The translations under genes were made by a program, and so were the position numbers. A stretch of DNA of 64,000 nt from an uncultured bacterium (GTDB lineage: Bacteria; Patescibacteriota; Minisyncoccia; Phycocordibacterales; GWA1-40-21): assembly GCA_963716205.1 (NCBI GenBank), contig OY970290.1, forward strand, positions 584,823 through 648,822. The letters run 5' to 3'. The notes beneath the pieces were generated by a model. That model saw only the letters and a list, made by a program, of their open reading frames with translations. It did not search any database and was not told the origin of the DNA. This document shows, piece by piece, positions 2,817 through 58,741 of this stretch. Within the stretch, counting starts at the first letter, position 1, and each line of letters opens with the position of its first letter.

Positions 2817-3602
2817 TTATCTTCCGTGCATTCTCTGCATTGTCCTCATTTGATCAGTAGAGCTGGCTTCCTCATCACGAATAGTCTTGCCGGTAAGTGC
2901 AAGATACGCATCCTCGAGAAAAGTGGTATTTGTTCTTTTTTTGAGTTCATCCGAAGTGCCGACGGCAACTATTTTGCCGTGATCAATGATGACAATACGC
3001 GTTGCAATTCTGTCGGCTTCTTCCATTTGATGCGTAGTGAGAAAAATTGTCATTTTTTCAGTTTTATTGAGTTGTTGCAATCGATCCCACATCAGACTTC
3101 TGGTCTGGGCGTCAAGACCGATGGTCGGCTCGTCCAAAAATAATATTTTTGGATCGTGCAAAAGCCCCCGTGCAATTTCAAGCCTGCGTTTCATTCCTCC
3201 TGAAAATGATTTGACGACGCTGTCTCTGCGCTCCCACAAATCGACAAATTTTAGCAATTCTTCGCTCCGTGCCTTTCGTTCTGCATCGGGAACATCATAG
3301 AGAACTCCGTGCAAATCCATATTTTCCCATGCGGTGAGATCGTCATCAACGCTTGGATCTTGAAAAACGATTCCAAACGTCCGGCGCGCCTGTTCAGGCT
3401 GGCTCACCGGATCAATATTGTTCAATCGAATGGTCCCAGAATTTGGATGAAGAAGCGTTGTGAGCATTTTTACTGTCGTGGTTTTTCCCGCGCCGTTCGG
3501 ACCGAGAAAAGCGAATACTTCGCCGTCATTTACCGTGAACGAAATATTATCCACTGCTATGAGATCGCCGTATTTTTTCGTCAAATTACTTACTTCAATC
3601 AT
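2817..3602 (-). CDS. ABC transporter ATP-binding protein (DrrA-like)
   Basis: Walker A GPNGAGKTT, an ABC signature variant FSGGMKRRLEIARGLL, Walker B ILFLDEPTIGLD and an H-loop. Confidence 0.85.
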   Translation of the reverse strand: MIEVSNLTKKYGDLIAVDNISFTVNDGEVFAFLGPNGAGKTTTVKMLTTLLHPNSGTIRLNNIDPVSQPEQARRTFGIVFQDPSVDDDLTAWENMDLHGVLYDVPDAERKARSEELLKFVDLWERRDSVVKSFSGGMKRRLEIARGLLHDPKILFLDEPTIGLDAQTRSLMWDRLQQLNKTEKMTIFLTTHQMEEADRIATRIVIIDHGKIVAVGTSDELKKRTNTTFLEDAYLALTGKTIRDEEASSTDQMRTMQRMHGR

Positions 3603-28459: not shown

Positions 28460-28533
28460 GCGCGTGTAGCTCAGCTGGTCAGAGCGCGAAGCTTATACCT
28501 TCGTGGTCCCTGGTTCGAATCCAGGCACGCGCA
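28460..28533 (+). tRNA. tRNA-Ile (anticodon TAT/UAU)
   Basis: gcgcgtgtagctcagctggtcagagcgcgaagCTTATACcttcgtggtccctggTTCGAATccaggcacgcgca. It folds as a clean cloverleaf with U33, anticodon U34-A35-U36 and A37. Confidence 0.7.
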
Positions 28534-28556
28534 CAAAATAAAGGCTATTTTTCTAC

Positions 28557-31613: not shown

Positions 31614-32017
31614 GGGGATGATCGGCCTAGACAATTGACCAATTATCCGTGCGGCAAAGTGGAGCAACCTTGTGAACTCCTAAATCTATCAAGGAAACTG
31701 TAAATGCTAAAAACATTTCTCAAAAAGTAGCGGGCGTTGCATCACCATTTATGGCGACCGTTCCTACTTTCGCTTACGCATTAGCCTAAGCGACATGTCA
31801 CCTGCTGACGTCTGATAGGTAGCGCGATGTGTAATATTTTCAGAATATATTTTATGAGTTCTCGGCGTAAAATGAAATTAGAGAATCGGATTATAAACAT
31901 TTTGTTTATTTCAAGTTTATAATCTTAAATTTGTCTTCGGACAAAAATAAATAAACTAGACTTTGTAGAAGCACTGCTAATAATCATTTGCACGGCGGTT
32001 CGATTCCGCCCATCTCC
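31614..32017 (+). ncRNA. ssrA: tmRNA (ssrA)
   Basis: Begins GGGGAUG and ends ...GGCGGUUCGAUUCCGCC-CAUCUCC-A. The 7-bp acceptor pairs 5' GGGGAUG with 3' CAUCUCC and includes the G3:U70 Ala identity pair. There is an internal ORF ...gct tac gca tta gcc TAA (...FAYALA*). It lies directly after smpB. Confidence 0.75.
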
Positions 32018-32912
32018 ACATACACGCTATTTGAGCCGCGCGATCGATAAAAGGCGACTCTATTCCTGCATATTCACTCGGTTCGAGTCGTGGACTTTCA
32101 GATCGTATACCATTCATTGTTTCGTCAATCAGCAAGAACGGTTTGAGCAATACAGCGCTTAGTTTTTTGTCCTTCAGTGTCCAGTTCGAGACAAAATACT
32201 CGACTATCTTTTTTTGGCTTATAAGGTCTCCTTTTTTAAACCACATCTTGGAATGATGGGCAAAAACAAAGATATTTTTTAGGGAGTCTTCCCAGTTTTC
32301 CTCTCGGCCTTTTGCCTTTTTCATCCACTTTAGGGCCTCGTCCCGTTCCGTTTCCAGTTTCTTTCTCCGGTCCAAATATTCCTTGTCGGTAATTAGTTCA
32401 CGAATTCTCATATCTGTAAGGACCTCTATAGATTTTTGGGCTTTGTCATGAACTCCTTCGAGGTTCCCCATCCTAACCTTAAGGGTTTCATTATCCGTTT
32501 GCCGAATACGTTCAATCCCTTGGCGCACCCAGAATACGAAGCGTTTCGGAATATGAATTCGTTCCAAGAAGTCAGCAATTTGAGCTTTTAGACTTGGAAG
32601 GGTGATCGAAGATTGAGAACACTTGTTCTTGCCCTTCTTATTTGTGCAGTGATAATAGGTGTAGGAACGAGTTTCACCAGTACCCTTGATGAGTTTTGTT
32701 TTTTCTTCCGCCGTAACCATGTAACCGCATTCCCCGCAACGAATGGTTCCCGTGAAAGCGAATTCGTGGGTCTTGGGGCGAGGCTTTCCTTCGCGCCCTA
32801 GAATTTCCTGCACCCAGTCAAATTCATCTTGCGAGACCAGGCGCTTATATTTATGGGGATATGCTTCCCCTTTTCTTTTCATAAGACCGCAATAGAATGG
32901 GTTTGTGAACAT
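31977..32912 (-). pseudogene. large serine recombinase remnant: C-terminal recombinase tail, zinc beta-ribbon and coiled coil only; no resolvase catalytic domain
   Basis: ...NPFYCGLMKRKGEAYPHKYKRLVSQDEFDWVQEIL... then IRCGECGYMVTAEEK...YTYYHCTNKKGKNKC (zinc ribbon) and a coiled coil. The ORF 3' end overlaps the tmRNA 3' end by about 40 nt (stop at 31977, tmRNA ends 32017). No in-frame catalytic domain exists upstream. Confidence 0.5.
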
Positions 32913-32926
32913 CTTATAACGATAAC

Positions 32927-33208
32927 GTGGGGAAAGAAAAGAAGAACGATTTGGTATATGAATATGATCTTCGATACATGCTATCAACCCGAGAAGGCAT
33001 GTTAGCCCGAGATTTGGCTGAAGGATTAAACGACAAAAAAAGTCTCCGTTTTTACTTCTCGATGGCCTTGGAACACTCAGAGAAATATTTGAGAGAAATC
33101 TACCGCAAGACCATGGAGACACCAGAACATAAGATTAAAAAATCTCGTGGAGCACTCTTTTCTTACCTCATAAAAAAGTATGAACACTTTGACACTATTG
33201 ACTATTGA
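32927..33208 (+). CDS. hypothetical protein
   Basis: 93 aa ORF. It occupies the position where the recombinase N-terminus would be, on the other strand. Confidence 0.25.
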   Translation: MGKEKKNDLVYEYDLRYMLSTREGMLARDLAEGLNDKKSLRFYFSMALEHSEKYLREIYRKTMETPEHKIKKSRGALFSYLIKKYEHFDTIDY

Positions 33209-33647
33209 TCCAGGTGCTAGATTCTGGGGAGTCTCTGTTTTTCACGGGAGAAACTTCAACATCTCCTTTATAAAGAAGCTTTCTACAAAAGCTTCTCCTA
33301 GAAACAGACTCTGCAAGACCAGGAGGTTATTTCTCACCCTTTGCAAGAAGTATGGTCCCGACATCCTCATCATTGAAAAACCCTATAAATTCTGGGAAAA
33401 GCAATCCCAATATCTAGGAAGGATCATTGGAGAGATAAAACGGCTTGCTAGGAAGGAGCGAATAAAAGTGATCGAGTATTCTCCTAGAACTGTCCGGAAA
33501 GTGGTCTGTAATGATAAAAATGCAACTAAAGAGGGTATAGATGATGCCGTCTGTAGGTTCTATCCAGAGTTAAAGACGTACCTAAATGAGAGCCGAAACT
33601 ACAATGACAAATATTGGGGTCGCATGAAAGTCTTGTGGAACAACTAA
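33180..33647 (+). CDS. RuvC-like Holliday-junction resolvase (phage/mobile-element type)
   Basis: 155 aa. LLTIDPGARFWGVSVF matches the RuvC motif (I)LGIDPG..G. ...ILIIEKPY... carries the catalytic Glu, and ...VIEYSPRTVRKVVCNDKNATKEGIDDAV resembles the RuvC helix region. Confidence 0.55.
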   Translation: MNTLTLLTIDPGARFWGVSVFHGRNFNISFIKKLSTKASPRNRLCKTRRLFLTLCKKYGPDILIIEKPYKFWEKQSQYLGRIIGEIKRLARKERIKVIEYSPRTVRKVVCNDKNATKEGIDDAVCRFYPELKTYLNESRNYNDKYWGRMKVLWNN

Positions 33648-33994
33648 TGATTGAACAACGACTTGGCGAAGGTCAAGGCTTGGACGGGTGTTTAAATGTT
33701 TACAACAAACTAATAGATTTAGATGATTTATCAACAGCTTTAATTTTCGATTACATCATGGCCGACGAAGTTAATCACGTGGAACGTGGAAATTATTGGA
33801 TTAGATATCTGCTTAAAGGAAATGAGGTAGCAATACAATCCTTGGAAGCGCGAACACGTATAAAATTATTGAAATTGGGTTTGGATCTTTCCGTTCCAAT
33901 TCCAGTGAACGTTCGCGGGCGTCGTCTCGCCGGGTTCACTGATGAAGAAATCAGTAAATGCCAAACAGCGGAATTTGACACCCAACAATATTGA
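33647..33994 (+). CDS. hypothetical protein, translationally coupled to the RuvC-like gene (TAATG overlap)
   Basis: 115 aa, ...IMADEVNHVERGNYWIRYLL... Confidence 0.3.
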   Translation: MIEQRLGEGQGLDGCLNVYNKLIDLDDLSTALIFDYIMADEVNHVERGNYWIRYLLKGNEVAIQSLEARTRIKLLKLGLDLSVPIPVNVRGRRLAGFTDEEISKCQTAEFDTQQY

Positions 33995-34064
33995 CAAAAG
34001 ATCGAATTTAACAATAATACTTTTATTACTAATTATTTTAAAATAAACAGAAGGGGTAAAAAAA

Positions 34065-34238
34065 TGAAAGCTAAATCTTCCGCGGTGAAAAAAAAAGTTA
34101 ATCCTTCCAACTTAAAGTTCTTAACTCATGTTTCTAAATTGACGAAAGCATTACAGTCAAACAATCGTGAAGCAGAAAAAATAATTAAGCAATTAAAAGC
34201 CCTTCGTCCCTTCCCCATGCCAAGCACCTGGTAGTCAA
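34065..34238 (+). CDS. small hypothetical protein with strong RBS
   Basis: 57 aa (MKAKSSAVKKKVNPSNLKFLTHVSKLTKALQSNNREAEKIIKQLKALRPFPMPSTW), preceded by AAGGGG 7 nt upstream. It is below the ORF-track length cutoff. Confidence 0.25.
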
Positions 34239-34297
34239 GGACTGTTTGCCCCAGGACTTCGACAATAGGCCTTCCCAAAATTTTAGGTGGTGAACAA

Positions 34298-35026
34298 TTA
34301 TTCTTTTTCAAGAATAGCAACGTAGGAAGAACCTGCAGAAGTTAAAATATTTTTTATTTTCCAACCGGTTCCTTTCACAATATTTTTCATTTCGTTTTTT
34401 GAAACTAATAGGTAATTAAACCAATCACCGATATAGTTTTCGAATCGGACTCGTATTCGAAGTTGGCCTGCCATTCGTCCCCTCCTTTTGTTCAATTTAA
34501 GATATGACAAATGTGCGGAATTACTTGTTTTATATGGGTCATTGCTTTCAGCAATAATAAAAGCTTCTGGTTTAGTGATTTTATAAATGGCTTTTAATAA
34601 GGATTTAGCTTTTTTAAAACTCCCAAACAAACCAAAGTTGTTGCCGTACATGACAATCGTATCAAATGAATTTCTTTGGAGAGTATGAATCTTTTCAATT
34701 GGAAGAACCTGCGTTTTTGTTATGCCCCTTGCTTTGCATACTTTAATTGCGAGAGGTGAGTTATCTATCGCTGTGACATCGAGACCTTTTCTTTGAAGAT
34801 ATAGCGCAACTCTTCCCGCGCCGGTGCCCACATCAAGAATTCTTCCCTTGGCAAATACTATTGCTTTCTTCTGTTGAGTTGGCCAGTTTTTAAAATCTTG
34901 AAAATACGCTGGAGAACCCGTTGATAATCCAACATAACCATCATCTCGTTCGATGAGTTCGTAAGACTTTTTTCTTTTGAAATAAGCCCATATTTCTTGC
35001 CCATATGCATCTTTATCAAAATTCAT
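34298..35026 (-). CDS. class I SAM-dependent methyltransferase
   Basis: Motif I ILDVGTGAGRVALYL, plus acidic post-I and motif II. Confidence 0.7.
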   Translation of the reverse strand: MNFDKDAYGQEIWAYFKRKKSYELIERDDGYVGLSTGSPAYFQDFKNWPTQQKKAIVFAKGRILDVGTGAGRVALYLQRKGLDVTAIDNSPLAIKVCKARGITKTQVLPIEKIHTLQRNSFDTIVMYGNNFGLFGSFKKAKSLLKAIYKITKPEAFIIAESNDPYKTSNSAHLSYLKLNKRRGRMAGQLRIRVRFENYIGDWFNYLLVSKNEMKNIVKGTGWKIKNILTSAGSSYVAILEKE

Positions 35027-35376
35027 TATAAAAAAATATTATGAGGTCTGGTGTACTTGTTATTAAGCACCGCTCTCGTTAGCCGAATTGTACCTTTGTA
35101 ATGCCAGAATTGCAAATTCCTAACTGGTCACATTTAGTGCAATAATTATTATAAAAAAAACATCGGCATTCATTAAAATTGGGCAAAACAAGGTCCGTTC
35201 CAAAGTTATATATTTTTAAGTATTGTTCTTTCCATAATTTTTTTGTTTGAAACGAAACTAAATATTATGATGAAGTTCATTATGTAAAATAAAAAAGGAG
35301 GGCAATCTTATGGCAACTCTCAAAAAAGAAGTCATCGTTGGCTGTTATTGAAAATCCATCTTGAAAGGTGTCCGCC

Positions 35377-35862
35377 GTGAGAATCAAATATCTTGTTTTG
35401 GTTATTATTCTGTCAGTTTCAAACGCATTTGCTCAAGACGGTAATTCACAGGACGTTATTTATTTAAAAAATGGTCGCGTGGTAAAAGGAACGATTGTTG
35501 AAAAATCGCCCGGAGGGAAACTTACAATTCGGACTTGGAGTGGATACAAGTTCACTTATAAAAAATCGGAGATTAGTAAGATTGAAAAAGAAGAAACAGG
35601 GAAGGATGAAGAGCAGGCAGATCAAAACGAGTCAAAGCCAACCACTAAAAATCGGGGCCATGTAATCGATAATTTATACGGCGATTCAAAGTATTTTATC
35701 CAGGTTTCCCGGCACATTCAGAAATTCAGTTACTTGACTCCACCACCACCTACTCCCGTACCGCCGGTGTCACCGATTTGTTTCGATTTGGAGATAACAA
35801 TTCCCTTGGAGTTAAACTTTATTGTCGCGGATTGGGTATCTACTCCTGACCCGATGCCATAA
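35377..35862 (+). CDS. hypothetical secreted protein with Pro-rich tail
   Basis: Signal peptide MRIKYLVLVIILSVSNAFA. The C-terminal 40 aa overlap the convergent lipoprotein gene. Confidence 0.35.
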   Translation: MRIKYLVLVIILSVSNAFAQDGNSQDVIYLKNGRVVKGTIVEKSPGGKLTIRTWSGYKFTYKKSEISKIEKEETGKDEEQADQNESKPTTKNRGHVIDNLYGDSKYFIQVSRHIQKFSYLTPPPPTPVPPVSPICFDLEITIPLELNFIVADWVSTPDPMP

Positions 35863-36098
35863 ATTCCACTAGAAACCTTCGTAAATGAATAAATGAAACT
35901 CGATGTTCCATCTTCATTTTCCAATTCTTGATTGGGTGAACCGAGTAGCTCCACTACATCTTCCTTAGTACTTACACCTTTTTTGATTTGTGAATACGCA
36001 CTTTGGTCGATCTGATGGCCCAAAGTAGTTACGCACCCCGTTATAAGACTGCTTGCAAAAGAAAAAATTAGCGAACACAGAATAAATCTCCGTAACAT
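35730..36098 (-). CDS. lipoprotein, SmpA/OmlA (BamE)-like domain with Gly-rich tail
   Basis: MLRRFILCSLIFSFASSLITGC lipobox, then ...SKEDVVELLGSPN... Confidence 0.4.
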   Translation of the reverse strand: MLRRFILCSLIFSFASSLITGCVTTLGHQIDQSAYSQIKKGVSTKEDVVELLGSPNQELENEDGTSSFIYSFTKVSSGIYGIGSGVDTQSATIKFNSKGIVISKSKQIGDTGGTGVGGGGVK

Positions 36099-36258
36099 TA
36101 TTCGTCTCCTTTTCGAAGTTATATAAACCAAAGTTCTCAATTAAGAACCTTCAAGGACAAAAAGGGGCCTAAATATGTTCTTTTTTGAGAACCTTAATAT
36201 AGCAATAAAGTTCTTAGTTGAGAACGTTTATTTTCGTATTGATTTTAATAATGGGGGC

Positions 36259-36465
36259 ATGTCAATACATGCGAAACGAGTCTCGAAAAACCTGAGGAAA
36301 ATGATTGTTGATAGTGGTATGAGCGCAGAAAAAATTGCTCAAGGGGCAGGCATTTCTAAATCACAGATTTCCTACTACTTGAATAGCACTCGAACACCTA
36401 CCATTCAAACCTTAGAGAAAATATCGGATTTCCTGAAGCGGGATTTTCAGGATTTTTTCAGATAA
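36259..36465 (+). CDS. XRE-family helix-turn-helix transcriptional regulator
   Basis: MSAEKIAQGAGISKSQISYYLNSTRTPTIQTLEKISDFL, an HTH_3 pattern. It is convergent with the restriction-modification operon. Confidence 0.5.
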   Translation: MSIHAKRVSKNLRKMIVDSGMSAEKIAQGAGISKSQISYYLNSTRTPTIQTLEKISDFLKRDFQDFFR

Positions 36466-36472
36466 TAGAAGT

Positions 36473-37429
36473 TCAGTGTTTCGAATATGGCCCTAAGAAT
36501 CGGGTTCCATTGAAGTGAATCATGTGGGAAGGATTTTCCGCAACCCATACTTCGGTTTCCCACGCAATCACGGAGAGGTATTTCGTCATTATTGATTTCG
36601 TCGGGAACGCAGTCACAAACACGAGTCCTGCCGTGCAGCCTGAAAACATTTTCTTGAGTTCTTCATGCCGCTTGGCATCCATCGGTCCATGACTTGTTAC
36701 CGACTCCACGAGGACCAGCCAGTTTTTATCAGGATAATAAATTACAACATCAGGCATTTTCCCGTGGGAATCAACAGTAACACCGAGCTTCGCCAATGAC
36801 TTTTCATCAAAAGATGCCCACTTCTTACCAGTATCACCCACATAGACAACTTGAGCGCCGGGGACGAAACGAGAACCAAACTCTTCCACGATAGCCTTGA
36901 TAAGCTGGCTATGTTCCCCAGGACTTAGTTTGATCTCATTACCAGGAGTAATCTTTAAGGCTACTTGTTTCAAATCACGTTCTGCCGCATATTTTTTCGC
37001 CAACTCTGTTTTTATCAAAAGGTATTCTTTAACCTTTTTACTCCACCGCGAAGTGCCGTAACTTTTTACTAACTCAAACGCTTCCGGGGAAATCTGATAT
37101 ACCGCTTTGGGGCTATTTACCGAACGTTCAGGTTCATCGGGGTTATACATAGCAAGTCCAGCTTGGACAAATTGATGGATAGTAAAACGACGAAATGTCT
37201 CTCTGCTGTTGGGAGCATATTTTTTTCCATATGCCTTCAAACTAAAGTCCATCATGGGCGTAATGCCCATGAGTGGCGTAGATGCGTCCTTCCACTCCGT
37301 AGTTTTCTTTAGATTGAGCAAAGCCAAAAGGCAAAGTGCCGACCGCTCATTTATCTGTTCTTTCGGCATTCCAACTTCAGTGAGGATCTTTAACGCATCT
37401 TCGATATGTTCGTGTTGTTTTTTGTTCAT
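36473..37429 (-). CDS. type II restriction endonuclease (PstI/BsuBI-family-like, inferred)
   Basis: 318 aa. Its start overlaps the stop of the upstream DNA methyltransferase by 4 nt (ATGA). The size and N-terminal wHTH-like region fit the BsuBI/PstI family. The assignment rests mainly on context. Confidence 0.45.
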   Translation of the reverse strand: MNKKQHEHIEDALKILTEVGMPKEQINERSALCLLALLNLKKTTEWKDASTPLMGITPMMDFSLKAYGKKYAPNSRETFRRFTIHQFVQAGLAMYNPDEPERSVNSPKAVYQISPEAFELVKSYGTSRWSKKVKEYLLIKTELAKKYAAERDLKQVALKITPGNEIKLSPGEHSQLIKAIVEEFGSRFVPGAQVVYVGDTGKKWASFDEKSLAKLGVTVDSHGKMPDVVIYYPDKNWLVLVESVTSHGPMDAKRHEELKKMFSGCTAGLVFVTAFPTKSIMTKYLSVIAWETEVWVAENPSHMIHFNGTRFLGPYSKH

Positions 37430-38904
37430 TGGATTGATTTTACCATTTTATCAACATCTCCCTGATTAGCAGTTCTATTCGATTTTGCCATTTTGCCGAG
37501 AACTCTGAGCGCTTCAATCGGTGGATATTTCAAAGAGCGAAGATCGGTCGCATTTACTTGCGTATGTCCGTTGAATTCCCTGAAATATTTGTCAACACCA
37601 GATGAGTTCAAATACATCGTTAGACCCCGCGCTACATTTTCTTCAAGGCCTGTTTTCTTAATGTGAAAAACATTTAGATGGTTTTCAAAACCAAGTCTTT
37701 TGGCTTTAATTTCTTTGGGCGAAAGAAGAGCTGCGCTTATACGCTTTTTCTCCTCTTTGGAAGAAAACCTTTTTACCAAAACATAAAACCCTTTTGGAAA
37801 AAGCATTTTTTTCGTTTCATCGTCTAGTGAGATGGCATTAGATTTTCGGATCTCTTTTTTGGGCCATTTCACTGAGTTACCATCAAAGTGCGCTGGATAC
37901 AATAGTGGAGCATCACCTTTTAAAGGCATTTTGTGAAGATTGTCTTTTATACGAAAATCAACCACCGGCCCCGTCGATACTTCTATACCAATTTCTTTGA
38001 GACTACATTTGTCAGTATTCGAGTTTTCCAATGAATTCTTTTTGATTTCAGTAGGAATATGGATGAACGATTCCTCATCCAACGGATTAAGGATTTGTCC
38101 AATATCACATTTGAATTGTTTCAAGTCTGAAAATGAAGAGTCGGAAGATATTGAAATTAAAACTTCTTTTGAAATCCGTCCTTTAACCAAATGGAAAATA
38201 ACGTTTTCTTGAAGAACTCCGTCATCCTTGAATGCCCGTTTCCTTGAATCAAATAAATGAATAGTTTTAATCGCCGTTTTCTTAAGTAAAGATTTTCGAA
38301 ACGATCTGTAGTAAGGGCCGTTGCAAAAACTTCGAGGAATGATAACTACTAATTCGCCACCTTTCGCCATTTTATTTACTGCCACTTCTACGAAGGCAGA
38401 ATAAAGATTCACTGTCTCTATTCCCATTGTTCGAAGCATTTCTCTATGTTCAGAATCACTGTGAATTTTCTTGTAAGGAGGGTTTAGGATCGCATGAGTA
38501 TAGTTTGGTGATTCTGATTTCCATGAATTTCTTACCGCATCAACAATGAAATCATCGTTGTAAATTCGATATTCAAAACGACCATTGGATTTGTTCTTTT
38601 GAAAACTGTTAAAATTATTTTTGAGATACGCCGCTAAGTCGTTGTCTATTTCAAATGCATCAACATATATTTTGGGCTTTAGTCTCTTAAGAGAACTCCA
38701 TCTTTCAAGAAAAGCGAATGTTAAGGAACCGATACCTGCACCCGCATCAAGTAATTTGATTTCCCTATTGGTAAACTTGGAAAAAAGTGACGCCATGAAT
38801 GCGCCCACAGGAGCAGGTGTCATAAACTGACCAAGTGCCGACTTTACCACCGGGTCAAGTGCCTTAGAAACCTCTTGCCTTTTTTGGTCAACTATTTGGA
38901 GCAT
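37426..38904 (-). CDS. N6-adenine DNA methyltransferase, gamma class (M.PstI/BsuBI/Eco57I-like)
   Basis: Motif I LDAGAGIGSLT precedes motif IV NPPY (AILNPPYKKI), and a large C-terminal target recognition domain follows. Confidence 0.75.
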   Translation of the reverse strand: MLQIVDQKRQEVSKALDPVVKSALGQFMTPAPVGAFMASLFSKFTNREIKLLDAGAGIGSLTFAFLERWSSLKRLKPKIYVDAFEIDNDLAAYLKNNFNSFQKNKSNGRFEYRIYNDDFIVDAVRNSWKSESPNYTHAILNPPYKKIHSDSEHREMLRTMGIETVNLYSAFVEVAVNKMAKGGELVVIIPRSFCNGPYYRSFRKSLLKKTAIKTIHLFDSRKRAFKDDGVLQENVIFHLVKGRISKEVLISISSDSSFSDLKQFKCDIGQILNPLDEESFIHIPTEIKKNSLENSNTDKCSLKEIGIEVSTGPVVDFRIKDNLHKMPLKGDAPLLYPAHFDGNSVKWPKKEIRKSNAISLDDETKKMLFPKGFYVLVKRFSSKEEKKRISAALLSPKEIKAKRLGFENHLNVFHIKKTGLEENVARGLTMYLNSSGVDKYFREFNGHTQVNATDLRSLKYPPIEALRVLGKMAKSNRTANQGDVDKMVKSIQ

Positions 38905-39114
38905 TTGTTCTCATTTTTCTTAATTCTAATAATCATTACTTTATGCAGTTACCACAAGCGCAGATTAAGTATACATCTGTTTACCAAAATTCAAAATCTC
39001 ATTTCCAGAAGACTGACTCGATAATCCGACTTCAAAAACTCTTTGAATTCTTTCATCTCTCCTAGCCCTTTATTTTAGGTAATATACAATATAAGTTATG
39101 GCAGACTATCGAAT

Positions 39115-40627
39115 ATGACGATTCCAAATTACATCACGCCAATCACGAAGATCCACTCTACTTTCAAAGAAGCCAAAGGTTTTTTTGATACGTATGGGGG
39201 TATATCGATCTTTGATGACGAGCCGAGACTCGATGTTGTAGCTCTCACGCAAGGAAAGCGCAATCTCGTGGTAGGCGAGCCCGGTGTCGGTAAAAGCCTG
39301 TTGCTTCAGGTCGTCAAAGAACATCTTGATCAAGAGAAATATGCCACTGCCATCATTAGCCTTCGTGATCCAGATGCAATTAAACAAATAGACGAATTTT
39401 TGAATTCTCCTTTCCAAACCCAAAAAACCTTACTACTTGATGCACTCGATGAAGTTAAGGCGAACTTATTTCCATCGCTACTCCAAAAAATCGAAGACAT
39501 TTCTGCTAAATATCCGGACATTTCGATTTTTCTCTCCTGTAGGTGGGTATTCATCAGTCGATATACAAATTCATTTCCCGCATTTCGCTTCATCACAATT
39601 TCTCCTTTTACCCGCAGACAAGTAAAAATGTATCTCATTGGGTCTCCAATTTTTTGGTGATCCAACAGTCATTGACGAATTGCCCGATCTCACTAATTCG
39701 GAAGAACTGATACTCACAAGCCAATATAAGCGGTGGGAAGAAGAACAATCCAAAACTGCATCAAATAACACGGAAGAAACTGCTGAAGAGCTTTTGAAAG
39801 AATTTCGTACTTTACTTGAACCCGAACCGGGAAAATTTAAAACTAATGTGTTTCAATTCTACAATAGACATTCGAATGAAATTACTTCACGACTTACAGA
39901 TAATGATCGCGAGCGAATTATAAATCTTCTTTCAAATACAGTTTTTAAATTCATGGACCCAGGCCAATACGGTATCACAATCACTTCAGAAAAAAACGGT
40001 TCACACACTTTCACCGTAGCTGACACGATACATATTTTTGGTGATGCAATCGTGACCGCGGAACACATCGGAATGAACATAACTCCCTTTCGACAACAAA
40101 TTCTCAATTTCATACCGTTTACATTTGGAGATAATCTGACCACCATCTTTAATTTGGTGAAAAACATTCGGCCCGAAGAAATGACACCCATTATTGAAGT
40201 TTATCGAAAACGTCATTCAGATTTGTGGCGGCATAACCCCCATAGTTTTGTTAAAGCTGTGGAGCAGTATCACATCTCAGAAGCCATACCTGTTTTGAAA
40301 ACCTTGATATTTGAATCAAAATGGGAAATGCAAGTTAGAAATGCCGCCTTACCAGTGATCGATTCCCTTGCACCAGATATAGATTTTCTTAGACAAGTCG
40401 TCGCAAGGTACAAAGATAGTACAGATAACGAAGAGAAAAAATTAGCAGACATCGCGAATGGTTTGCTCATTACTAACTATGCTGATGCTGACGCAGTGCA
40501 TTGGCGTTTAAAAAAAATCGTTGAGCGAGCAGCCGCCTTCATTAAGCCGAGAGGACCGCACGCGCATATGGTAGGCGGCTTGGAGGAAGAAATTTCATTT
40601 GGAAAGACATTTGCAAAACCGTTATAG
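39115..40627 (+). pseudogene. STAND/NACHT-like P-loop NTPase, split by a +1 frameshift in a T6 run (39650-39655) into a 181-aa NTPase part and a 329-aa C-terminal part
   Basis: Walker A VVGEPGVGKSLLL, Walker B LLLDALDEV, and a sensor-like SCR. ORF1 ends ...IGSPIFW*. ORF2 continues in the +1 frame from a TTG. Deleting one T fuses them into a protein of about 510 aa. Confidence 0.45.
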
Positions 40628-40815
40628 ATAATGCTGGAGCTAAAAACATGATCGGCATCAAAGAAGCTTTCCAAAACATAAAAGGTGTATGGGTTTTGTC
40701 GTTTAACTGCCACGATAGTGTGACAGCCCAAAAGAAGAAAAAGGTCCTAAAAACAAAAAAACGAGCTGACCATACCGGTCAGCGTAGAAAGAAGTAGCAT
40801 ATTCGAGTGTAGATA

Positions 40816-41325
40816 CTATCTTTCGTCCACTACTCGAAATTTTCTAGGTATATCAGATGGTCGTGCATATCGTTCGGAACGTGGACCATTTACGGTTTCA
40901 TCTAACGCCTTTGCGCCAGGTCTCGTTCCCCGTCTTTCAAGAGCGTTAATCTTTTTCGCTTGTTCCCTAATCCTGACGAACGAAAGATTTATCTCGATGT
41001 GCGTGCCTTTGTCATTCCTGCATGAATAGGAATCATAGATAAATTTCTTGTCAAAATACGGATATAAAATACGATAAATCACATGATGCAGAAGTCTGTC
41101 TCGCACGACCGCCTTGTGTATGCTTCTCGGTTTCGGATCGTTGATAGCAAATGCTTTATAGCCGGAATGAACGTATGTTTTGTTTTTCAAATCATCATGC
41201 AGACTTGCAATATTTTTTGAGAGTTGAAGCGCATATTCTGCCACATCATTTTTATATCGTTTGTCAGAAACAAATTCCCGCCATGCTTGGTGAATATTTG
41301 TCAGAGATATGATAGTATCGTACAT
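40816..41325 (-). pseudogene. DGR-type reverse transcriptase, N-terminal fragment (motifs 1-2 only; no YxDD)
   Basis: MYDTIISLTNIHQAWREFVSDKRYKNDVAEYALQLSKNIASLHDDLKNKTYVHSGYKAFAINDPKPRSIHKAVVRDRLLHHVIYRILYPYFDKKFIYDSYSCRNDKGTH follows the DGR/retron RT pattern (...FRDRVVHHAL...SYACRKGKGTH). After this point the ORF diverges and stops, and a terminator hairpin lies at 40758-40782. Confidence 0.6.
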
Positions 41326-41360
41326 GTTGGAAAAAATACTATACCACAAAAATACCATGA

Positions 41361-41732
41361 ATGTTGCCCCCCCCCCGCAAATCGCCAGTTGTCGTTGCAA
41401 AAGAAAAAGAAGCGTATCAATTTTGGCTTAGTCTCCACAGAAATTTTCCCAAGTCTGAACGCTTTGGTATCGGACAGAAAATAGAAAATACGTTTTTAGA
41501 CATTTTAGAATATAGCTTTGCATCAGTGTATCTGTCGCCGGAACCGAAAATTATCTTGCTCACAAAGACAATATCAAAACTAGATACCTTGAAATTCTTT
41601 GTTCAGCTTGCTTGGGAAAGTAAACTGATACCGGAAGAAAAATACATTGAATTTTCTGAAAAATTAGAGGAAATTGGAAAAATGCTCGGCGGATGGAAAC
41701 GCGGATTGCAACAAAAAACTCCCGCCAAATAG
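41361..41732 (+). CDS. avd: Avd-like four-helix-bundle protein (DGR accessory variability determinant)
   Basis: ...FPKSERFGIGQKIENTFLDILEYSFASVY... and ...KLDTLKFFVQLAWESKLIPEEKYIEFSEKLEEIGKMLGGW match the four-helix-bundle (23S rRNA IVS protein / bAvd) family. It sits between the TR and the RT gene on the opposite strand. A C10 run lies at 41367-41376, right after the start codon. Confidence 0.55.
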   Translation: MLPPPRKSPVVVAKEKEAYQFWLSLHRNFPKSERFGIGQKIENTFLDILEYSFASVYLSPEPKIILLTKTISKLDTLKFFVQLAWESKLIPEEKYIEFSEKLEEIGKMLGGWKRGLQQKTPAK

Positions 41733-41750
41733 ACGGGAGAAAATGAATGA

Positions 41751-41866
41751 GTTTCGGAACCACGATCCGATGCCTGTTCTCGGCATTCCAGACGTTGTCG
41801 TTCGACAAACGATTGACGTTCACGTTGAGCCCATCGGAGTTCACGTTCACGTTCGCCACGAAATTT
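41751..41866 (-). repeat. DGR template repeat (TR), 116 nt
   Basis: Near-identical to 42204-42319. On the minus (sense) strand it encodes NFVANVNVNSDGLNVNVNRLSNDNVWNAENRHRIVVPKL with 10 AAY Asn codons. Confidence 0.7.
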
Positions 41867-42199
41867 TGTGCAATGTTCCTCCTATTCCACCATCCGCCAA
41901 ACCATGACAGATTGTATCTTATGCGGGACCTCAAAGTCCTCTGAAATATTGCACCAACTTTATTTATTTTTATAAGATATCCGTATCATCCACTCTTTTA
42001 CAAGACGTATCCGGTAAAATTCTCAAACGATACAGACATGCAATTGCAGTCTCAAGCCGTAGCCGGAGACATCTAGAATTGCTTTTTCATTATATATGAA
42101 AAATAAAAAATTAAAATAAAAAACCCCTCGATCCTGCTTGCGCAAAATCGAAGGGTCAAAGTGTCCAAGTCCCAAAGGGACAAGAACGAAGTGTTGAAG

Positions 42200-42922
42200 T
42201 TACAGTTGCGGAACCACGACCCGAGGCCTGTACCCGGCATCCCAGACGTAGTCGTAAGACAAACGAAAGACGTGCACGTAGAGCCCATCGGAGTACACGT
42301 CCACGTCCGCCACGAAATAATCCTTCCCAACTTTGAAGAGGAAGAAAGTTCCGTAACCATCGGTACGAAGCCACTTGGCGTGCTTCTTGCAGAACTGCTT
42401 GATCTGGGCCTGAGTCAGACACAGACGATCGAGGTTTTCTCCAAAACTTCCGAAGATCGCCTTGAAGTCGCCGTCCTGCGTCATCTCAAACACGTGGGTT
42501 TTCACCCGCTTGGTCGCTTCAGCCGGAACATCAAGACCCCAGTTTTTGAAGTCGGAGTCGATATAATCGGGGAAAACGTCCTTGGCGTTCGCGATAGTTT
42601 CCGTGCCGTCTGTCGGATCAAGAACGGTGTCCTTGCCGAGAGAAATGCACGTGAGATGGCTGGTTTTGAGCTCGATGGATTCGGCAAAGAATTTTTCCAT
42701 CGCATCCTCGATCGCCGAATTGAGCTTGCCATCCGCTTGAATCCGCTGAACAGCCGATCTGTCGAGGGCTTTCGAAAACTTGCTAACCGCCCTCTTTACC
42801 CCTCTTCGTCCGGCTTTCTCGCCCCGACTCACGAGATCCTTCATCTGCTCGGATGTAATCAATGACTTAGCCATTGTTATCATCCTCCTTTTCTGAATTT
42901 TACTTCGCGTGGTTTTCACCAC
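42200..42922 (-). CDS. DGR target protein; VR at extreme C-terminus (CLec/FGE-like tail ...GYRPRVVVPQL)
   Basis: 240 aa. The last 38 aa (YFVADVDVYSDGLYVHVFRLSYDYVWDAGYRPRVVVPQL*) are encoded by the VR. Confidence 0.55.
   Translation of the reverse strand: MVKTTRSKIQKRRMITMAKSLITSEQMKDLVSRGEKAGRRGVKRAVSKFSKALDRSAVQRIQADGKLNSAIEDAMEKFFAESIELKTSHLTCISLGKDTVLDPTDGTETIANAKDVFPDYIDSDFKNWGLDVPAEATKRVKTHVFEMTQDGDFKAIFGSFGENLDRLCLTQAQIKQFCKKHAKWLRTDGYGTFFLFKVGKDYFVADVDVYSDGLYVHVFRLSYDYVWDAGYRPRVVVPQL
42204..42319 (-). repeat. DGR variable repeat (VR), 116 nt
   Basis: 17 mismatches against the TR. 16 of them lie at positions where the TR sense strand has A. Confidence 0.7.
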
Positions 42923-43271
42923 AGCTTTGAATTGACCTGTTGGATCAGCTCAAAGCTGTAGTGAAATACAACTGTTTTTAAGGTTCTTATCTACTTACAA
43001 TTGTACACCTTTTTAATATATCTGTCAAGAATAGCTATACTCCCTTAGAAATAAGCTAGATTTGGCTATGATACTACATATTTTTTCAGATCCGGAATAT
43101 AAATATACCTATTCTCTTCCTGAAAAATCGTACGGACTGCCATCACGGTGTCCCACATTAAAAAATAAACTCATATTCATAAATATGAGTTTATTTTTTT
43201 AAAATCTTGACACCAATATAATATATGTGTTAGTATTCTAACAAGTTGCTCTTACAAAAAAGGAGAACCGC

Positions 43272-43505
43272 ATGTCTATTCACACAGGTCAGCTCATCAA
43301 GACAACTGAAACACTTGGGGATTTGAAAAATGCCCATGTTGCAGAAAAACATATTCGAGCTCGCACACCGAATTGTTTTGGAACCGTATTTTCTGAACGG
43401 CCAAAGGAAAGGCTTGTCTATGTTAAACATGTAAACAAGCCTGATCTCGCCGTGTATGAACGCGGTGAATTATCTTCAGCCGAACAATTTTTGCAGGTTT
43501 CTTAA
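43272..43505 (+). CDS. hypothetical protein
   Basis: 77 aa. A TTGACA-17-TGnTAGTAT promoter-like element lies at about 43206-43240 and a terminator follows. Confidence 0.3.
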   Translation: MSIHTGQLIKTTETLGDLKNAHVAEKHIRARTPNCFGTVFSERPKERLVYVKHVNKPDLAVYERGELSSAEQFLQVS

Positions 43506-43519
43506 GAAATAAGCCCTGC

Positions 43520-43556
43520 AAAAAACCGCCCGACACAATGTCCGGCGGTTTTTTAT
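43520..43556 (+). terminator. Rho-independent terminator
   Basis: accgcccgaca-caat-gtccggcggt followed by a T-run. Confidence 0.55.
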
Positions 43557-43674
43557 TATATTTTTCATTACGTAAGGGAAAAATAAGAATATCCACAGCT
43601 ATTGACAATATTAATATAATGATATAAAATATAAATAAAGCTGTTCTTCGTAAATTTAAAAAACGAGGTGGAGT

Positions 43675-44388
43675 GTGAAAAACATTTTCATGCTGTTCCT
43701 GCTGACGTTTAGCGTTTTGTCCACCGGCTGCATTTATAGAGTGGTCTATGGACCAAGAGTCTATGACATTTATGGACAAGACACTCCTGCTGCCGCGAGA
43801 ATTCGTTTTTATCAGCAACATCCAGAATTTAAGGATGATGTGATAGATGATGGAATAACGGGCATTGTGCCGGGACCAAATGGCTGGATAATTAGTCATC
43901 ATAAAAAAGATGCTAGTCCTGCCGTTCCCCGTCCTCAAAGCTTAAAGCCTGCAGTTAAAGCTAGAGAATGGGTAAATGTTCCTGATGGATATTTTCAGCC
44001 GCCGCTCGATGGTCCAATTGAAATCAATTGGAAAAAAGGACTTCATGGCAAGGGAAACACCGGCTATGATTTGTTCGCCAAAAAAGGATCGCGTGTCAAA
44101 TCGTCGGCTGCCGGCAAAGTAATTGTTGCATCAACGGGATGGAATGATGGATCGGGATATTTGATCCGGATTTTACATCCGAATGGAACCATTACGGCTT
44201 ATTGCCACCTTTCCCAAATTGATGTTTGGAAAGGACAAGAAGTTTTCCAAGGACAAACCATAGGACTCTCTGGAAACAGCGGAAACGTAAGCAGTGATTG
44301 CGGTGGAGATGGATCTCACCTGCATTTTGCGGTTTACTATACGGAAAATCCAGCTCCAAAATGGGAGTCGCGTTACGCTTCTCGTTAA
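43675..44388 (+). CDS. M23-family peptidase lipoprotein
   Basis: Lipobox LSTGC, LytM motifs ...HxxxD... and SHLHFAV. Confidence 0.7.
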   Translation: MKNIFMLFLLTFSVLSTGCIYRVVYGPRVYDIYGQDTPAAARIRFYQQHPEFKDDVIDDGITGIVPGPNGWIISHHKKDASPAVPRPQSLKPAVKAREWVNVPDGYFQPPLDGPIEINWKKGLHGKGNTGYDLFAKKGSRVKSSAAGKVIVASTGWNDGSGYLIRILHPNGTITAYCHLSQIDVWKGQEVFQGQTIGLSGNSGNVSSDCGGDGSHLHFAVYYTENPAPKWESRYASR

Positions 44389-44400
44389 TTGTGTTTAGGA

Positions 44401-44440
44401 AAAAGGGATCGTGATTCGTCACGGTCCCTCTTTTTATTTT
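44401..44440. terminator. bidirectional terminator
   Basis: gggatcgtgattcgtcacggtccc flanked by A- and T-runs, between convergent genes. Confidence 0.55.
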
Positions 44441-45060
44441 TATATCTTTCCAACAAGATCAAGTCCGGGTGATAAAGTATCATCTCCTGGCTCCCAGCTT
44501 GCCGGACAAACTTTGCCGCCGTGTGTGGCAACAAACTGCGCAGCTTGGAGCTTTCTGAATAATTCTTTTGCAGATCTGCCGATGGAATTATCATTGATCT
44601 CCATCGATTTCAAAACTCCGTCCGGGTCGATGACAAATGTTCCTCGCAGAGAAACTCCCTCGGACGGAATATATGTGCCGAACATTTCCGACAGCTCATG
44701 CGTCGCATCGGAAAGCATCGGGAATTTTACTTTCTTGATAGCCGGAGATGTATCATGCCACGCTTTGTGCACTTCGACGGTATCGACGGAAACAGAAAGT
44801 ATTTCAGTATTTAATTTTTTAAATTTGTCATAATAATCCGCCATCTCTTCAAGCTCGGTCGGGCAGATGAATGTAAAATCTTTCGGATAGAAAAATACTA
44901 TTACCCATTTTCCGCTAAAATCGGAAAACTTGATATTTTTTTCTTTTCCTGCATGCAAAGCTTTCGCTTCAAAATCTGCAACTTTCTGGCCGACTTCCAC
45001 CAAAAAAGATTCTCCGCACATGTCGCATCCCCCACCGCACATTGTGTTATCTTTGCTCAT
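44440..45060 (-). CDS. peroxiredoxin (AhpC/Prx1 family) with Cys-rich N-terminal extension
   Basis: FTFICPTELEEM peroxidatic Cys motif and a resolving Cys near the C-terminus. The N-terminus is MSKDNTMCGGGCDMCGE. Confidence 0.8.
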   Translation of the reverse strand: MSKDNTMCGGGCDMCGESFLVEVGQKVADFEAKALHAGKEKNIKFSDFSGKWVIVFFYPKDFTFICPTELEEMADYYDKFKKLNTEILSVSVDTVEVHKAWHDTSPAIKKVKFPMLSDATHELSEMFGTYIPSEGVSLRGTFVIDPDGVLKSMEINDNSIGRSAKELFRKLQAAQFVATHGGKVCPASWEPGDDTLSPGLDLVGKI

Positions 45061-45106
45061 AAATTTTTATATTGTATTAATTAGTAATATAAAAAGTATA
45101 TCAAAT

Positions 45107-45772
45107 ATGCTAGAATTGTTGAAATCGCCAGATTTTATGAATTTAAAATACAAACTTATCCTTCTTACACTTCTCGTTATCGTTTTTTGTGCGATTCTTT
45201 TTGGCATAACGGCACATAATCAGCTTGTAATGAATTTTGACGCCGAAACCGCGCAATTATTTTCCACATTTCATTCTTCTTTTCTCGATAATTTCGCCCT
45301 TGCCATTACTCAAGTCGGCAATACGTATCCAACAGCGATTATTTTTTTGATTCTCGGGCTTTTCCTGATTATAAAAAAGAAAAAATATTCGTTTTATATT
45401 TTTTCGATAGCGACCGGACTCGGCATCACGCTCGTCGAAGCGATGAAAGTCAGTATTGAGCGCATCCGCCCGCCGATGCATCTTTTGATTGAAACCGGAT
45501 ACAGCTTTCCGAGCGGCCACTCGACCATTTCCACGATTTATTTGCTTTCGGCGATTATTCTCATCGCTCCGCTTCTTGCAAACCGCTTTTCAAAAATCGT
45601 TTGGATAACGCTTTGCTCGATTATTTTTCCGCTTGTCGCGCTTTCACGGATTTATCTTTCTGTTCATTTTGCTTCTGATGTCGCAGCCGGCATCATTCTC
45701 GGCGCAGCATGCTTCCTTTTTGCCAACACCGTCACATTCCACCATCATTCCTACAAAAAAGAAGCCGAGTGA
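45107..45772 (+). CDS. PAP2-family phosphatase (undecaprenyl-diphosphatase-like)
   Basis: KxxxxxxRP (...IERIRPP), PSGH and SRxxxxxHxxxD (SRIYLSVHFASD) motifs, with 6 TM helices. Confidence 0.7.
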   Translation: MLELLKSPDFMNLKYKLILLTLLVIVFCAILFGITAHNQLVMNFDAETAQLFSTFHSSFLDNFALAITQVGNTYPTAIIFLILGLFLIIKKKKYSFYIFSIATGLGITLVEAMKVSIERIRPPMHLLIETGYSFPSGHSTISTIYLLSAIILIAPLLANRFSKIVWITLCSIIFPLVALSRIYLSVHFASDVAAGIILGAACFLFANTVTFHHHSYKKEAE

Positions 45773-45875
45773 CATCGTTGCCAGAAAAAATAAAATATGC
45801 TATAAATAGCTTCTAACGCAGTCTATTGGGGGTTGTGAAAAATGCACGCTTTCAATACGTTATTTTTAAAAAACT

Positions 45876-56578: not shown

Positions 56579-58741
56579 TTACACTCTTTGCGTCGCTGTT
56601 CCTCTCGCTTCGATAATCGTCTTTGCCACATTTGGCGGTACGATGGCATAATGGTCAAATTCCATTGTTGCAGAAGCTCTGCCTTCGGTAAGAGACCTAA
56701 GTGTTGTAACGTATCCAAACATTTCCGCCAAAGGAACCATTGCTCGAATGACTTTATTCATGCCGCGATCAAACATTTCTGTTATCTGTCCTCTGCGTGA
56801 ATTGATCGAGCCGGAAACATCTCCCATGAATTTCTCCGGTGTAACGACTTCAACTTTCATCATCGGTTCAAGAATAACCGGCTTTGCACGTCTTGCCGCA
56901 TCTTGAAATGCCATTGAAGCGGCGATTTTGTATGCGAGCTCGGATGAGTCAACATCGTGATACGATCCGTATGTAAGCTCACAGGAAACATTTACTACGC
57001 GATAGCCGGCAAGAATTCCTCGCTCCATTGCTTCTTTCACGCCTTTTTCTACTGCGGGAATAAATTCCTGCGGAATAACACCTCCTTTGATGGAATCGAT
57101 AAATTCAAAATCTTCGGATCGATGAACATTTTTTGGAATTTTTTCTCCTTCCTCAATCGGCTCCATCGGCTTGATTTTGATGAGCACGTGTCCATACTGA
57201 CCTTTTCCTCCGGACTGTTTGATATATTTTTCCTCTTTTTCCGCTTCGCCGGTGATAGTTTCTTTGTAAGCAACCTGCGGCTTGCCGACATTCGCTTCAA
57301 CGCCGAATTCCCTTTTCATTCTGTCCACAAGAATTTCCAAGTGAAGTTCTCCCATGCCCGCCATAACGGTCTCACCTGTTTCTGAATCAGACTTGATTTT
57401 AAAAGTTGGATCTTCATCGGAAAGTTTTTTGAGGGCAAATCCCATTTTTTCCTGGTCGGCTTTTGTCTTCGGTTCGATTCGAAGAGTAATGACCGGCTCC
57501 GGAAATACGATTTGGTCCAAAATAATCGGATTCGCCTCGTCGCAGAATGTGTGCGACGTCTTTGCGGATTTCAAACCGACGGCTGCCGCAATTTCTCCGG
57601 CAAAAACCGTTTCCACATCTTCGCGGTCGTTGGCATGCATTCGCACGACTCTTCCCAATCTTTCTTTTTCTCCGGTCGTTGAATTATAAATATACGTTCC
57701 AGCGGAAATCGTTCCGGAATAAACTCGAAAATACGTGAGCTGTCCGACGAACGGATCGTTTTGCAATTTGAATGCAAGCGCACAGAATGGTTCCTCGTCT
57801 GATGCATGTCGCGTGACTTCTTCTCCAGTTTTCGGATTGATGCCTTTGACTGCCGGAATATCAAGCGGGCTTGGAAGATAATCCACAACAGCATCAAGCA
57901 TCAGCTGCGTGCCTTTATTTTTTAAAGCGGAACCGGTCATGACTGGCACAATGGTATTTTTGATTGTCGCTTTTCGCAAAACTCTCTTCAAATCCTCGAT
58001 TGCGATTTCTTTTCCTTCAAGATATTCATTCATCAACTTGTCATCTTCGCCAGCAATTTTTTCCACAAGCTCAAGGCGGTATTTTTTCGCTTCATCAAGC
58101 AAATCATTTGGAATTTCTTCTTCGCGAATCTTGTCGCCCATTTCGCCGTCAAAGTAATATGCTTTCATTTTCAAAAGATCAACAAGACCTTTGAATTCAC
58201 TTTCAGCACCGATCGGCAACTGCAATCTAACGGCATTTTTTGTAAGTCTTTCAAGAATAGACTGGTAGGATCGTTCAAAACTTCCTCCGGTTCTATCGAG
58301 TTTATTGATGAAACAAATTCTCGGCACTTGTCCTTCATCGGCATATCTCCAGTTCGTCTCTGACTGCGGTTCAACTCCGGCAACGCCGTCAAAAACAACG
58401 ACAGCTCCGTCGAGCACGCGAAGAGATCTTTTTACTTCGGCGGTAAAATCAATGTGTCCCGGCGTATCAATAATGTTGAATCTAACTTTTTTGCTCAAAT
58501 CCTCTTTCGGCATATAACTCGGATTCCAAAAACACGTAATAGCGGCAGATGTGATGGTGATGCCTCGTTCCCGCTCCTGTTCCATCCAGTCTGTCGTCGT
58601 ATCGCCTTCATGAACCTCGCCAATATTGTGCTGCGAGCCGGTATAATAGAGAATTCTTTCAGAAACCGTCGTCTTTCCAGCATCAATGTGCGCGATGATT
58701 CCGAAGTTCCTGACTTTTTCCAATGGATAATCTCGTTTCAT
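56579..58741 (-). CDS. fusA: elongation factor G
   Basis: [14 protein letters not shown] and NKLD motifs. 720 aa. Confidence 0.95.

Follow-up and report, generated by a model that had tools for sequence, protein, structure and literature searches.

The question raised by this locus is what two adjacent minus-strand genes do in the chromosome of a Paceibacterota bacterium (candidate phyla radiation), and whether the small XRE-type regulator gene that faces them belongs to the same system. The stretch of DNA analysed, hereafter called the window, comprises 64 kb of contig OY970290.1, and all coordinates given below are positions in this window. The host was assigned to Paceibacterota (Patescibacteria) from the elongation factor EF-G encoded at 56579-58741, which showed up to 96% identity to database homologues and approximately 87% identity to proteins assigned to Candidatus Paceibacterota. 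The two genes very probably constitute an intact two-gene type IIP restriction-modification (R-M) cassette of approximately 2.5 kb, belonging to the PstI/BsuBI/EcoGIII family and composed of a methyltransferase gene (M) followed by a restriction endonuclease gene (R). Cassettes of the PstI/BsuBI/EcoGIII type are an already known kind, and the window pair is one more member. The cassette comprises the following features.

37426-38904, minus strand: M gene, a gamma-class N6-adenine DNA methyltransferase of 492 aa and of the M.PstI/M.EcoGIII type (open reading frame, ORF, call; Pfam, PADLOC and motifs).

36473-37429, minus strand: R gene, a BsuBI/PstI-family type IIP restriction endonuclease of 318 aa (ORF call, Pfam, PADLOC and the match to SdaI).

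37426-37429, minus strand: ATGA, shared between the stop codon of M and the start codon of R, an overlap through which the two genes may be translationally coupled (sequence and relatives).

36463-38937, minus strand: span of the whole mobile R-M cassette (delimited by DNA homology to a related cassette whose genomic surroundings differ).

The initial annotation, made from the sequence and its ORFs, had taken the 318-aa product for an endonuclease of the PstI/BsuBI family, and this was borne out by matches to both Pfam domains of that family rather than to a non-nuclease family. The N-terminal winged-helix domain, BsuBI_PstI_RE_N (PF17728), was matched with an E value of 2.6e-52 and 176.8 bits (cut-off, 27) over residues 7-143 of R, corresponding to profile positions 2-138 of 140. 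The C-terminal nuclease domain, BsuBI_PstI_RE (PF06616), was matched with an E value of 1.9e-65 and 219.4 bits (cut-off, 27) over residues 158-308, corresponding to profile positions 3-153 of 154. R also matched the PADLOC REase_II model PDLC03420 at 1.7e-141, and the NCBIfam search gave nothing meaningful for it. The sole relative with a solved structure that was found by sequence was SdaI (PDB 2ixs), which matched residues 9-316 of R with an E value of 9.1e-76.

The conservation of R was assessed in an alignment of 28 sequences, namely the window protein, EcoGIII, SdaI and 25 database homologues. All of the 69 residues invariant in this alignment are kept in R. The residues P226, D227 and E242 of R are invariant and are aligned with P232, D233 and E248 of SdaI, the acidic pair of the PD...E motif being included; the catalytic role of these residues in R is one that we take from knowledge of SdaI. 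R exhibited 59% identity to the EcoGIII endonuclease over 314 residues without a gap, compared to 41% identity to SdaI.

As for the methyltransferase, M displays FMTP (motif X) at residue 27, LDAGAGIG (motif I) at residue 52 and NPPY (motif IV) at residue 141, and approximately 350 more residues follow NPPY toward the C-terminus. Since the motifs run X, I and IV and are followed by a long C-terminal part, M has the gamma-class order, in agreement with what had been read initially from the position of LDAGAGIG ahead of NPPY. In Pfam, M matched Eco57I (2.1e-12, 47.9 bits; cut-off, 25.3) and N6_Mtase (2.1e-5, 24.4 bits; cut-off, 20.4), and the PADLOC MTase_II model PDLC03227 was matched end to end (1.6e-188, 625.7 bits). 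Models of RNA and protein methyltransferases scored far under their cut-offs on M (TrmN, 4.6e-5; PrmC, 2e-3), so that the assignment as a DNA methyltransferase, rather than one acting on RNA or protein, was upheld. The top NCBIfam match, to the Alw26I/Eco31I/Esp3I family, reached 76.9 bits, which was far under the cut-off of 353.5 bits, and the search of PDB sequences with the methyltransferase gave zero matches at an E value of 0.01 or below. Across 491 residues, M shares 49% identity with M.EcoGIII of phage P13374. With family matches ranging from 1e-12 to 1e-188, M and R are not chance ORFs.

Another PADLOC model named MTase_II, PDLC03359 (840 positions), was matched by M at positions 12-513 and by R at positions 530-839. 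Since this one model spans both M and R, fused single-chain M-R versions of the family exist.

At the junction of the two genes, ATGA at 37426-37429 is common to the M stop and the R start, as had been noticed at the outset, and the minus strand reads ...caatccaATGAacaaa... at this point. No Shine-Dalgarno-like sequence was seen upstream of the R start. The gene order was compared in 82 related R-M loci from other contigs, and the overlap was scored in 81 of them. M was found immediately upstream of R and on the same strand in 82 of the 82 loci, and the identical 4-bp NTGA overlap of M and R was present in 60 of the 81. Given their 4-bp overlap, the two minus-strand genes of the window would most likely be transcribed as a single M-then-R transcript. 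Furthermore, the overlap of the two codons, together with the lack of a separate ribosome-binding site for R, makes it probable that R is translated by re-initiation after M, a form of translational coupling. Such re-initiation would limit the amount of nuclease and delay it relative to the methylase, and a controller protein would be unneeded. In the mechanism that we propose, the gamma-class methyltransferase, dependent on S-adenosylmethionine, would most likely modify the adenine of CTGCAG on both strands, and the endonuclease, with its winged-helix DNA-binding domain and its PD-(D/E)XK-type nuclease domain, would cut unmethylated CTGCAG in incoming DNA.

The characterised reference for the window pair is EcoGIII, which resides in the Stx2a prophages of Escherichia coli O104:H4. 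In phage P13374 (locus L084), ORF31 is a DNA methylase and ORF30 is a restriction endonuclease, and we infer from the common outbreak lineage that this pair is EcoGIII itself. The arrangement is likewise M and then R, and the annotated coordinates overlap by 4 bp, with M ending at 3001 and R starting at 2998. The sizes of the two proteins are 489 and 317 aa in EcoGIII, compared to 492 and 318 aa in the window, and both window ORFs are full length and aligned end to end with EcoGIII, free of frameshifts. A dedicated controller (C) protein is absent from EcoGIII, as it is from the window cassette. The two systems differ in their sequences, which have diverged by 40-50%, and in their surroundings: EcoGIII lies on a lambdoid prophage beside cI in a gammaproteobacterium, whereas the window cassette is chromosomal, in Paceibacterota, and lies beside an unrelated XRE/BamE-like flank. 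EcoGIII has been reported to methylate and to cleave CTGCAG (PMC6602927, PMC3893438); its R gene has been reported to be biochemically active, and 98.8% of the CTGCAG sites carried N6-methyladenine (m6A) in an EcoGIII-carrying strain (PMC3893438).

The specificity of the window cassette was considered in the light of two segments of the N-terminal domain of R, YAPNSRETFRR and VNSPKAVYQI, the counterparts of which in SdaI are YATGSREDFRK and TNSQLNEYCL. The segments YAPN[ST]RETFRR and VNSPKAVYQI are common to R, EcoGIII and 25 other family members and are not shared by SdaI. Since R is 59% identical to the EcoGIII endonuclease without a gap, since its segments match those of EcoGIII and of a large 60%-identity group and not those of SdaI, and since the published site of EcoGIII is CTGCAG, the same site is predicted for R. 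For M, m6A methylation of CTGCAG is predicted from its full-length identity of 49% to M.EcoGIII. Judged from these likenesses, CTGCAG is with good probability the site of the cassette. The predicted site is also that of PstI (Providencia stuartii) and BsuBI (Bacillus subtilis), the founders of the Pfam family BsuBI_PstI_RE, and the likeness to them, which for R was drawn through Pfam domains, consists of both endonuclease domains together with a gamma-class methyltransferase of the Eco57I/N6_Mtase type. The PstI genes are divergently transcribed. Unlike this arrangement, the window cassette and 82 of the 82 related loci have tandem genes, which overlap in most cases.

Several observations weigh against the reading of the pair as a working cassette specific for CTGCAG, and they are considered here together with the alternatives to which they lead. 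In R, Thr245 is aligned with Lys251 of SdaI, though Thr is the family norm and is found in 26 of the 27 other aligned members, EcoGIII among them. The specificity assigned here rests on 59% (R) and 49% (M) identity to a CTGCAG enzyme, and family members with an extended site exist. One of them, SdaI, has the same two-domain layout as R, its acidic residues D233 and E248 match D227 and E242 of R, and its site is the 8-bp sequence CCTGCAGG. The cassette might therefore be of the same family and yet have an 8-bp site of the SdaI/SbfI type (CCTGCAGG), or another variant, in place of CTGCAG. The modest identity to EcoGIII would agree with this, as would the fact that the only solved relative of R reads CCTGCAGG and the lack of CTGCAG avoidance in the window described below; the count of CCTGCAGG in the window was 0, yet fewer than one would be expected anyway. 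We regard such a change of specificity as unlikely. R is nearer to EcoGIII than to SdaI, the putative recognition segments of SdaI are unlike those of R, and the latter agree with EcoGIII and the large 60%-identity group. Moreover, PADLOC keeps apart two REase_II models, of which one gave 469 bits on R and the other 160 bits. CTGCAG hence stays the predicted site.

The remaining observations of this kind concern the activity of the cassette. The initial annotation had suggested counting CTGCAG sites as a sign of avoidance, and no avoidance was seen: the window contains 11 sites, compared to a shuffle-based expectation of 7.9 +/- 2.9 and a Markov-model expectation of 9.2, and CTGCAG ranked 54th of the 64 palindromic hexamers by the ratio of observed to expected counts. 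The 64-kb window exhibits no under-representation of the site and no footprint of long-term restriction pressure; a count on 64 kb is a weak test, a host that methylates its DNA has no need to avoid the site, and the count has no bearing on family membership. In addition, the consensus promoter scan found no promoter upstream of M, the counts of promoters and terminators in the scan being not above the shuffled expectation. The DNA homology to the related cassette L002 stops just 33 bp upstream of the M start.

These results would fit a cassette that no longer restricts, either because R is inactive or silent and methylation is left, or because both genes are silent. The presence of decayed genes nearby points in the same direction, these being a recombinase that lacks its catalytic domain, a reverse transcriptase that is truncated and a nucleoside triphosphatase (NTPase) that is split. 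Nevertheless, a cassette that has lost restriction appears improbable to us, for both ORFs are full length with no frameshift in comparison to EcoGIII, the R of which was reported to be active (PMC3893438), every invariant residue of the 28-sequence alignment is present in R, and the overlap that would couple M and R is intact. It is reasonably likely that the cassette is currently active.

In the same site counts, GGATCC was strongly depleted in the window (2 observed, compared to 10.1 expected from the Markov model), and such a depletion might be the trace of a further R-M system encoded in some other part of the genome. ACTAGT, GCTAGC and GGGCCC had 0 occurrences in the window, with approximately one of each expected.

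The borders of the cassette were located from DNA homology. In blastn, L002 was 80% identical to window positions 36463-38937 and L003 was 70% identical to positions 36485-38904, and the flanks were unrelated in both cases. The two closest cassettes, the R proteins of which are 87% and 77% identical to that of the window, lie in unrelated contexts without the XRE gene. At least 598 matches to the family were found in species-representative genomes of many phyla, in addition to 169 plasmid records and 98 phage records, the latter mostly of Stx2a-converting phages (protein search). This spread over phyla, plasmids and phages fits a mobile cassette.

The meaning of the cassette beyond annotation is small, since it is a further cassette of the PstI/EcoGIII type, in this case in a small-genome bacterium of the candidate phyla radiation. 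The m6A predicted at CTGCAG in the host DNA could aid the methylation-based binning of metagenomic reads, and the same predicted methylation could help to forecast barriers to phage or DNA uptake.

The second part of the question concerns the XRE gene, which lies with its putative operators and a BamE-like gene next to the cassette.

36259-36465, plus strand: XRE (HTH_3) gene of 68 aa, a conserved flank of the insertion site and outside the cassette (Pfam HTH_3, 1.2e-11).

36133-36148, 36177-36192 and 36210-36225, no strand: three 16-bp palindromes GTTCT-N6-AGAAC, putative XRE operators, in the stretch that separates the XRE gene from the divergently oriented BamE-like gene.

35730-36098, minus strand: BamE-like lipoprotein gene of 122 aa, divergent from the XRE gene, a conserved flank and outside the cassette (Pfam BamE, 2.1e-7).

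The XRE gene and R converge, their stop codons being 7 bp apart, and a terminator-like hairpin is present at the 3' end of the XRE gene (36431-36452). The start at 36259, which gives the 68-aa product, had been chosen from the beginning and is preferred. A longer XRE ORF of 96 aa, starting at 36175, was rejected, since its ATG is not kept in four relatives, the XRE genes of which are called with 69 aa, and since the ORF would cross two of the operators.

The initial annotation had also raised the possibility that XRE is a C protein, which would time the expression of the endonuclease. C-protein control is exemplified by the R-M systems PvuII, AhdI and Esp1396I. The likeness to such systems is that a small HTH_3 protein is encoded beside an R-M pair, here at a distance of 7 bp from the R stop codon, and that palindromic operators lie upstream of its own gene. 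XRE also matched the PADLOC Control_protein models weakly, with E values of 2e-4 and 4.7e-3 (19.5 and 15.4 bits), but these matches were outscored by those to generic HTH models such as HTH_VI (1.4e-7). The comparison with the related loci gave a different picture. An XRE homologue within 5 kb was found in 0 of the 82 related R-M loci (tblastn, E value of 1e-3 or below), the 87%- and 77%-identical cassettes being included, and when 381 small ORFs within 600 bp of related pairs were searched by phmmer with all filters off, the best match to XRE had an E value of 0.083. Unlike the regulators of C-protein-controlled systems, XRE is convergent on R, is not placed ahead of it in one operon or co-transcribed with it, and is not conserved with the cassette.

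The operators argued in the same direction. Perfect matches to GTTCT-N6-AGAAC number three in the 64-kb window, and all of them are located at 36133-36225, with the XRE gene between them and R. Between 36466 and 39114, the region of M and R, no copy was found with one mismatch allowed. No copy was found in 748 kb of other loci either. In four relatives (L086-L089), by contrast, the operators and their spacing are kept while the surrounding sequence has diverged, and XRE proteins of 69 aa, at least 90% identical to that of the window, are always divergent from the same BamE-like gene, which is called as 122 aa in L001, L086, L088 and L089. In these contigs, XRE and the three operators are kept beside other cargo than an R-M cassette of this type. 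Four independent lines of evidence agree, and XRE is independent of the R-M cassette. A role of XRE as the C protein of the cassette was rejected as highly improbable, the proposal being largely refuted by the comparative context. We favour the reading of XRE as an autoregulated repressor that acts on the BamE-like/XRE flank and would bind the three operators.

The same comparison defined the border of the cassette on this side. In blastn, the flank homology to the XRE-bearing contigs covers window positions 35734-36470 and breaks exactly at the XRE stop codon; the end of this homology was placed at 36463-36470, and the cassette homology to L002 begins at 36463. Since the flank homology stops at the XRE stop codon and the homology to L002 runs from 36463, the junction lies within the 7-8 bp that separate the stop codon of XRE from that of R. 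Past the XRE gene, L086 and L087 carry a PLD-SNF2 helicase and a type IIG-like methyltransferase-nuclease, and L088 and L089 carry a PD-Lambda-3_B-like protein and a UvrD/GajB-like helicase. A more useful by-product of the analysis is that the adjacent XRE gene marks a variable site, with three different and unrelated defence cargoes in close relatives, and the site has the look of a defence hotspot. Speculatively, and with low confidence, the BamE-like/XRE module and its operators might mark a hotspot of defence-cargo exchange in Paceibacterota, in which the cargo would be swapped at the XRE stop codon and XRE may act as a shared regulator or landmark.

The wider neighbourhood had been described initially as a transfer-messenger RNA (tmRNA) island with other defence genes beside the R-M pair, and this description held only in part. 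The tmRNA gene was confirmed (31614-32021; Rfam, 103 bits); no intact integrase and no border repeat were found around it, and the neighbouring genes are weak matches or decayed. The minus-strand ORF at 31977-33122, the 3' end of which overlaps the 3' end of the tmRNA gene, has only Recombinase and Zn_ribbon_recom domains and no resolvase catalytic domain, and this serine-recombinase-like ORF is probably the remnant of an integrase. The last 22 nt of the tmRNA gene have no second copy in the 64-kb window at up to 3 mismatches, and none of the direct repeats in 31500-52000 pairs with the tmRNA 3' end. The GC content of 32020-45800 was 0.40, compared to 0.42 for the whole window. A tmRNA island, its border not found, is plausible. 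The tag predicted to be encoded by the tmRNA is unusually long: AKNISQKVAGVASPFMATVPTFAYALA.

Upstream of M, two ORFs at 39115-40627 encode a P-loop NTPase (a NACHT/AAA-like N-terminus of 181 aa) and a product of 329 aa, and they overlap at 39638-39660 in different frames. The matches of this split NTPase to defence models were weak (Avs2, E value of 1.3e-3), and the two ORFs are probably one STAND-like gene that was broken by a frameshift.

A diversity-generating retroelement occupies 40816-42922. It contains a pair of 115-nt repeats, at 41750-41864 and 42204-42318, and all differences between the two fall at positions that read T in the plus strand of the first copy and A in its minus strand. 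Since the differences are confined to these positions, the template repeat is the copy at 41750-41864, and the variable repeat is that at 42204-42318, which is located at the 3' end of the minus-strand ORF at 42200-42922. A bAvd-like gene lies on the plus strand at 41361-41732 (E value of 2.4e-15). The reverse-transcriptase ORF on the minus strand (40816-41400) matched only the first 114 of the 263 model positions and looks truncated.

Finally, a tRNA-Ile with a TAT anticodon was predicted at 28460-28534. Such a tRNA is uncommon in bacteria, in which AUA is usually decoded by a modified tRNA with a CAT anticodon.

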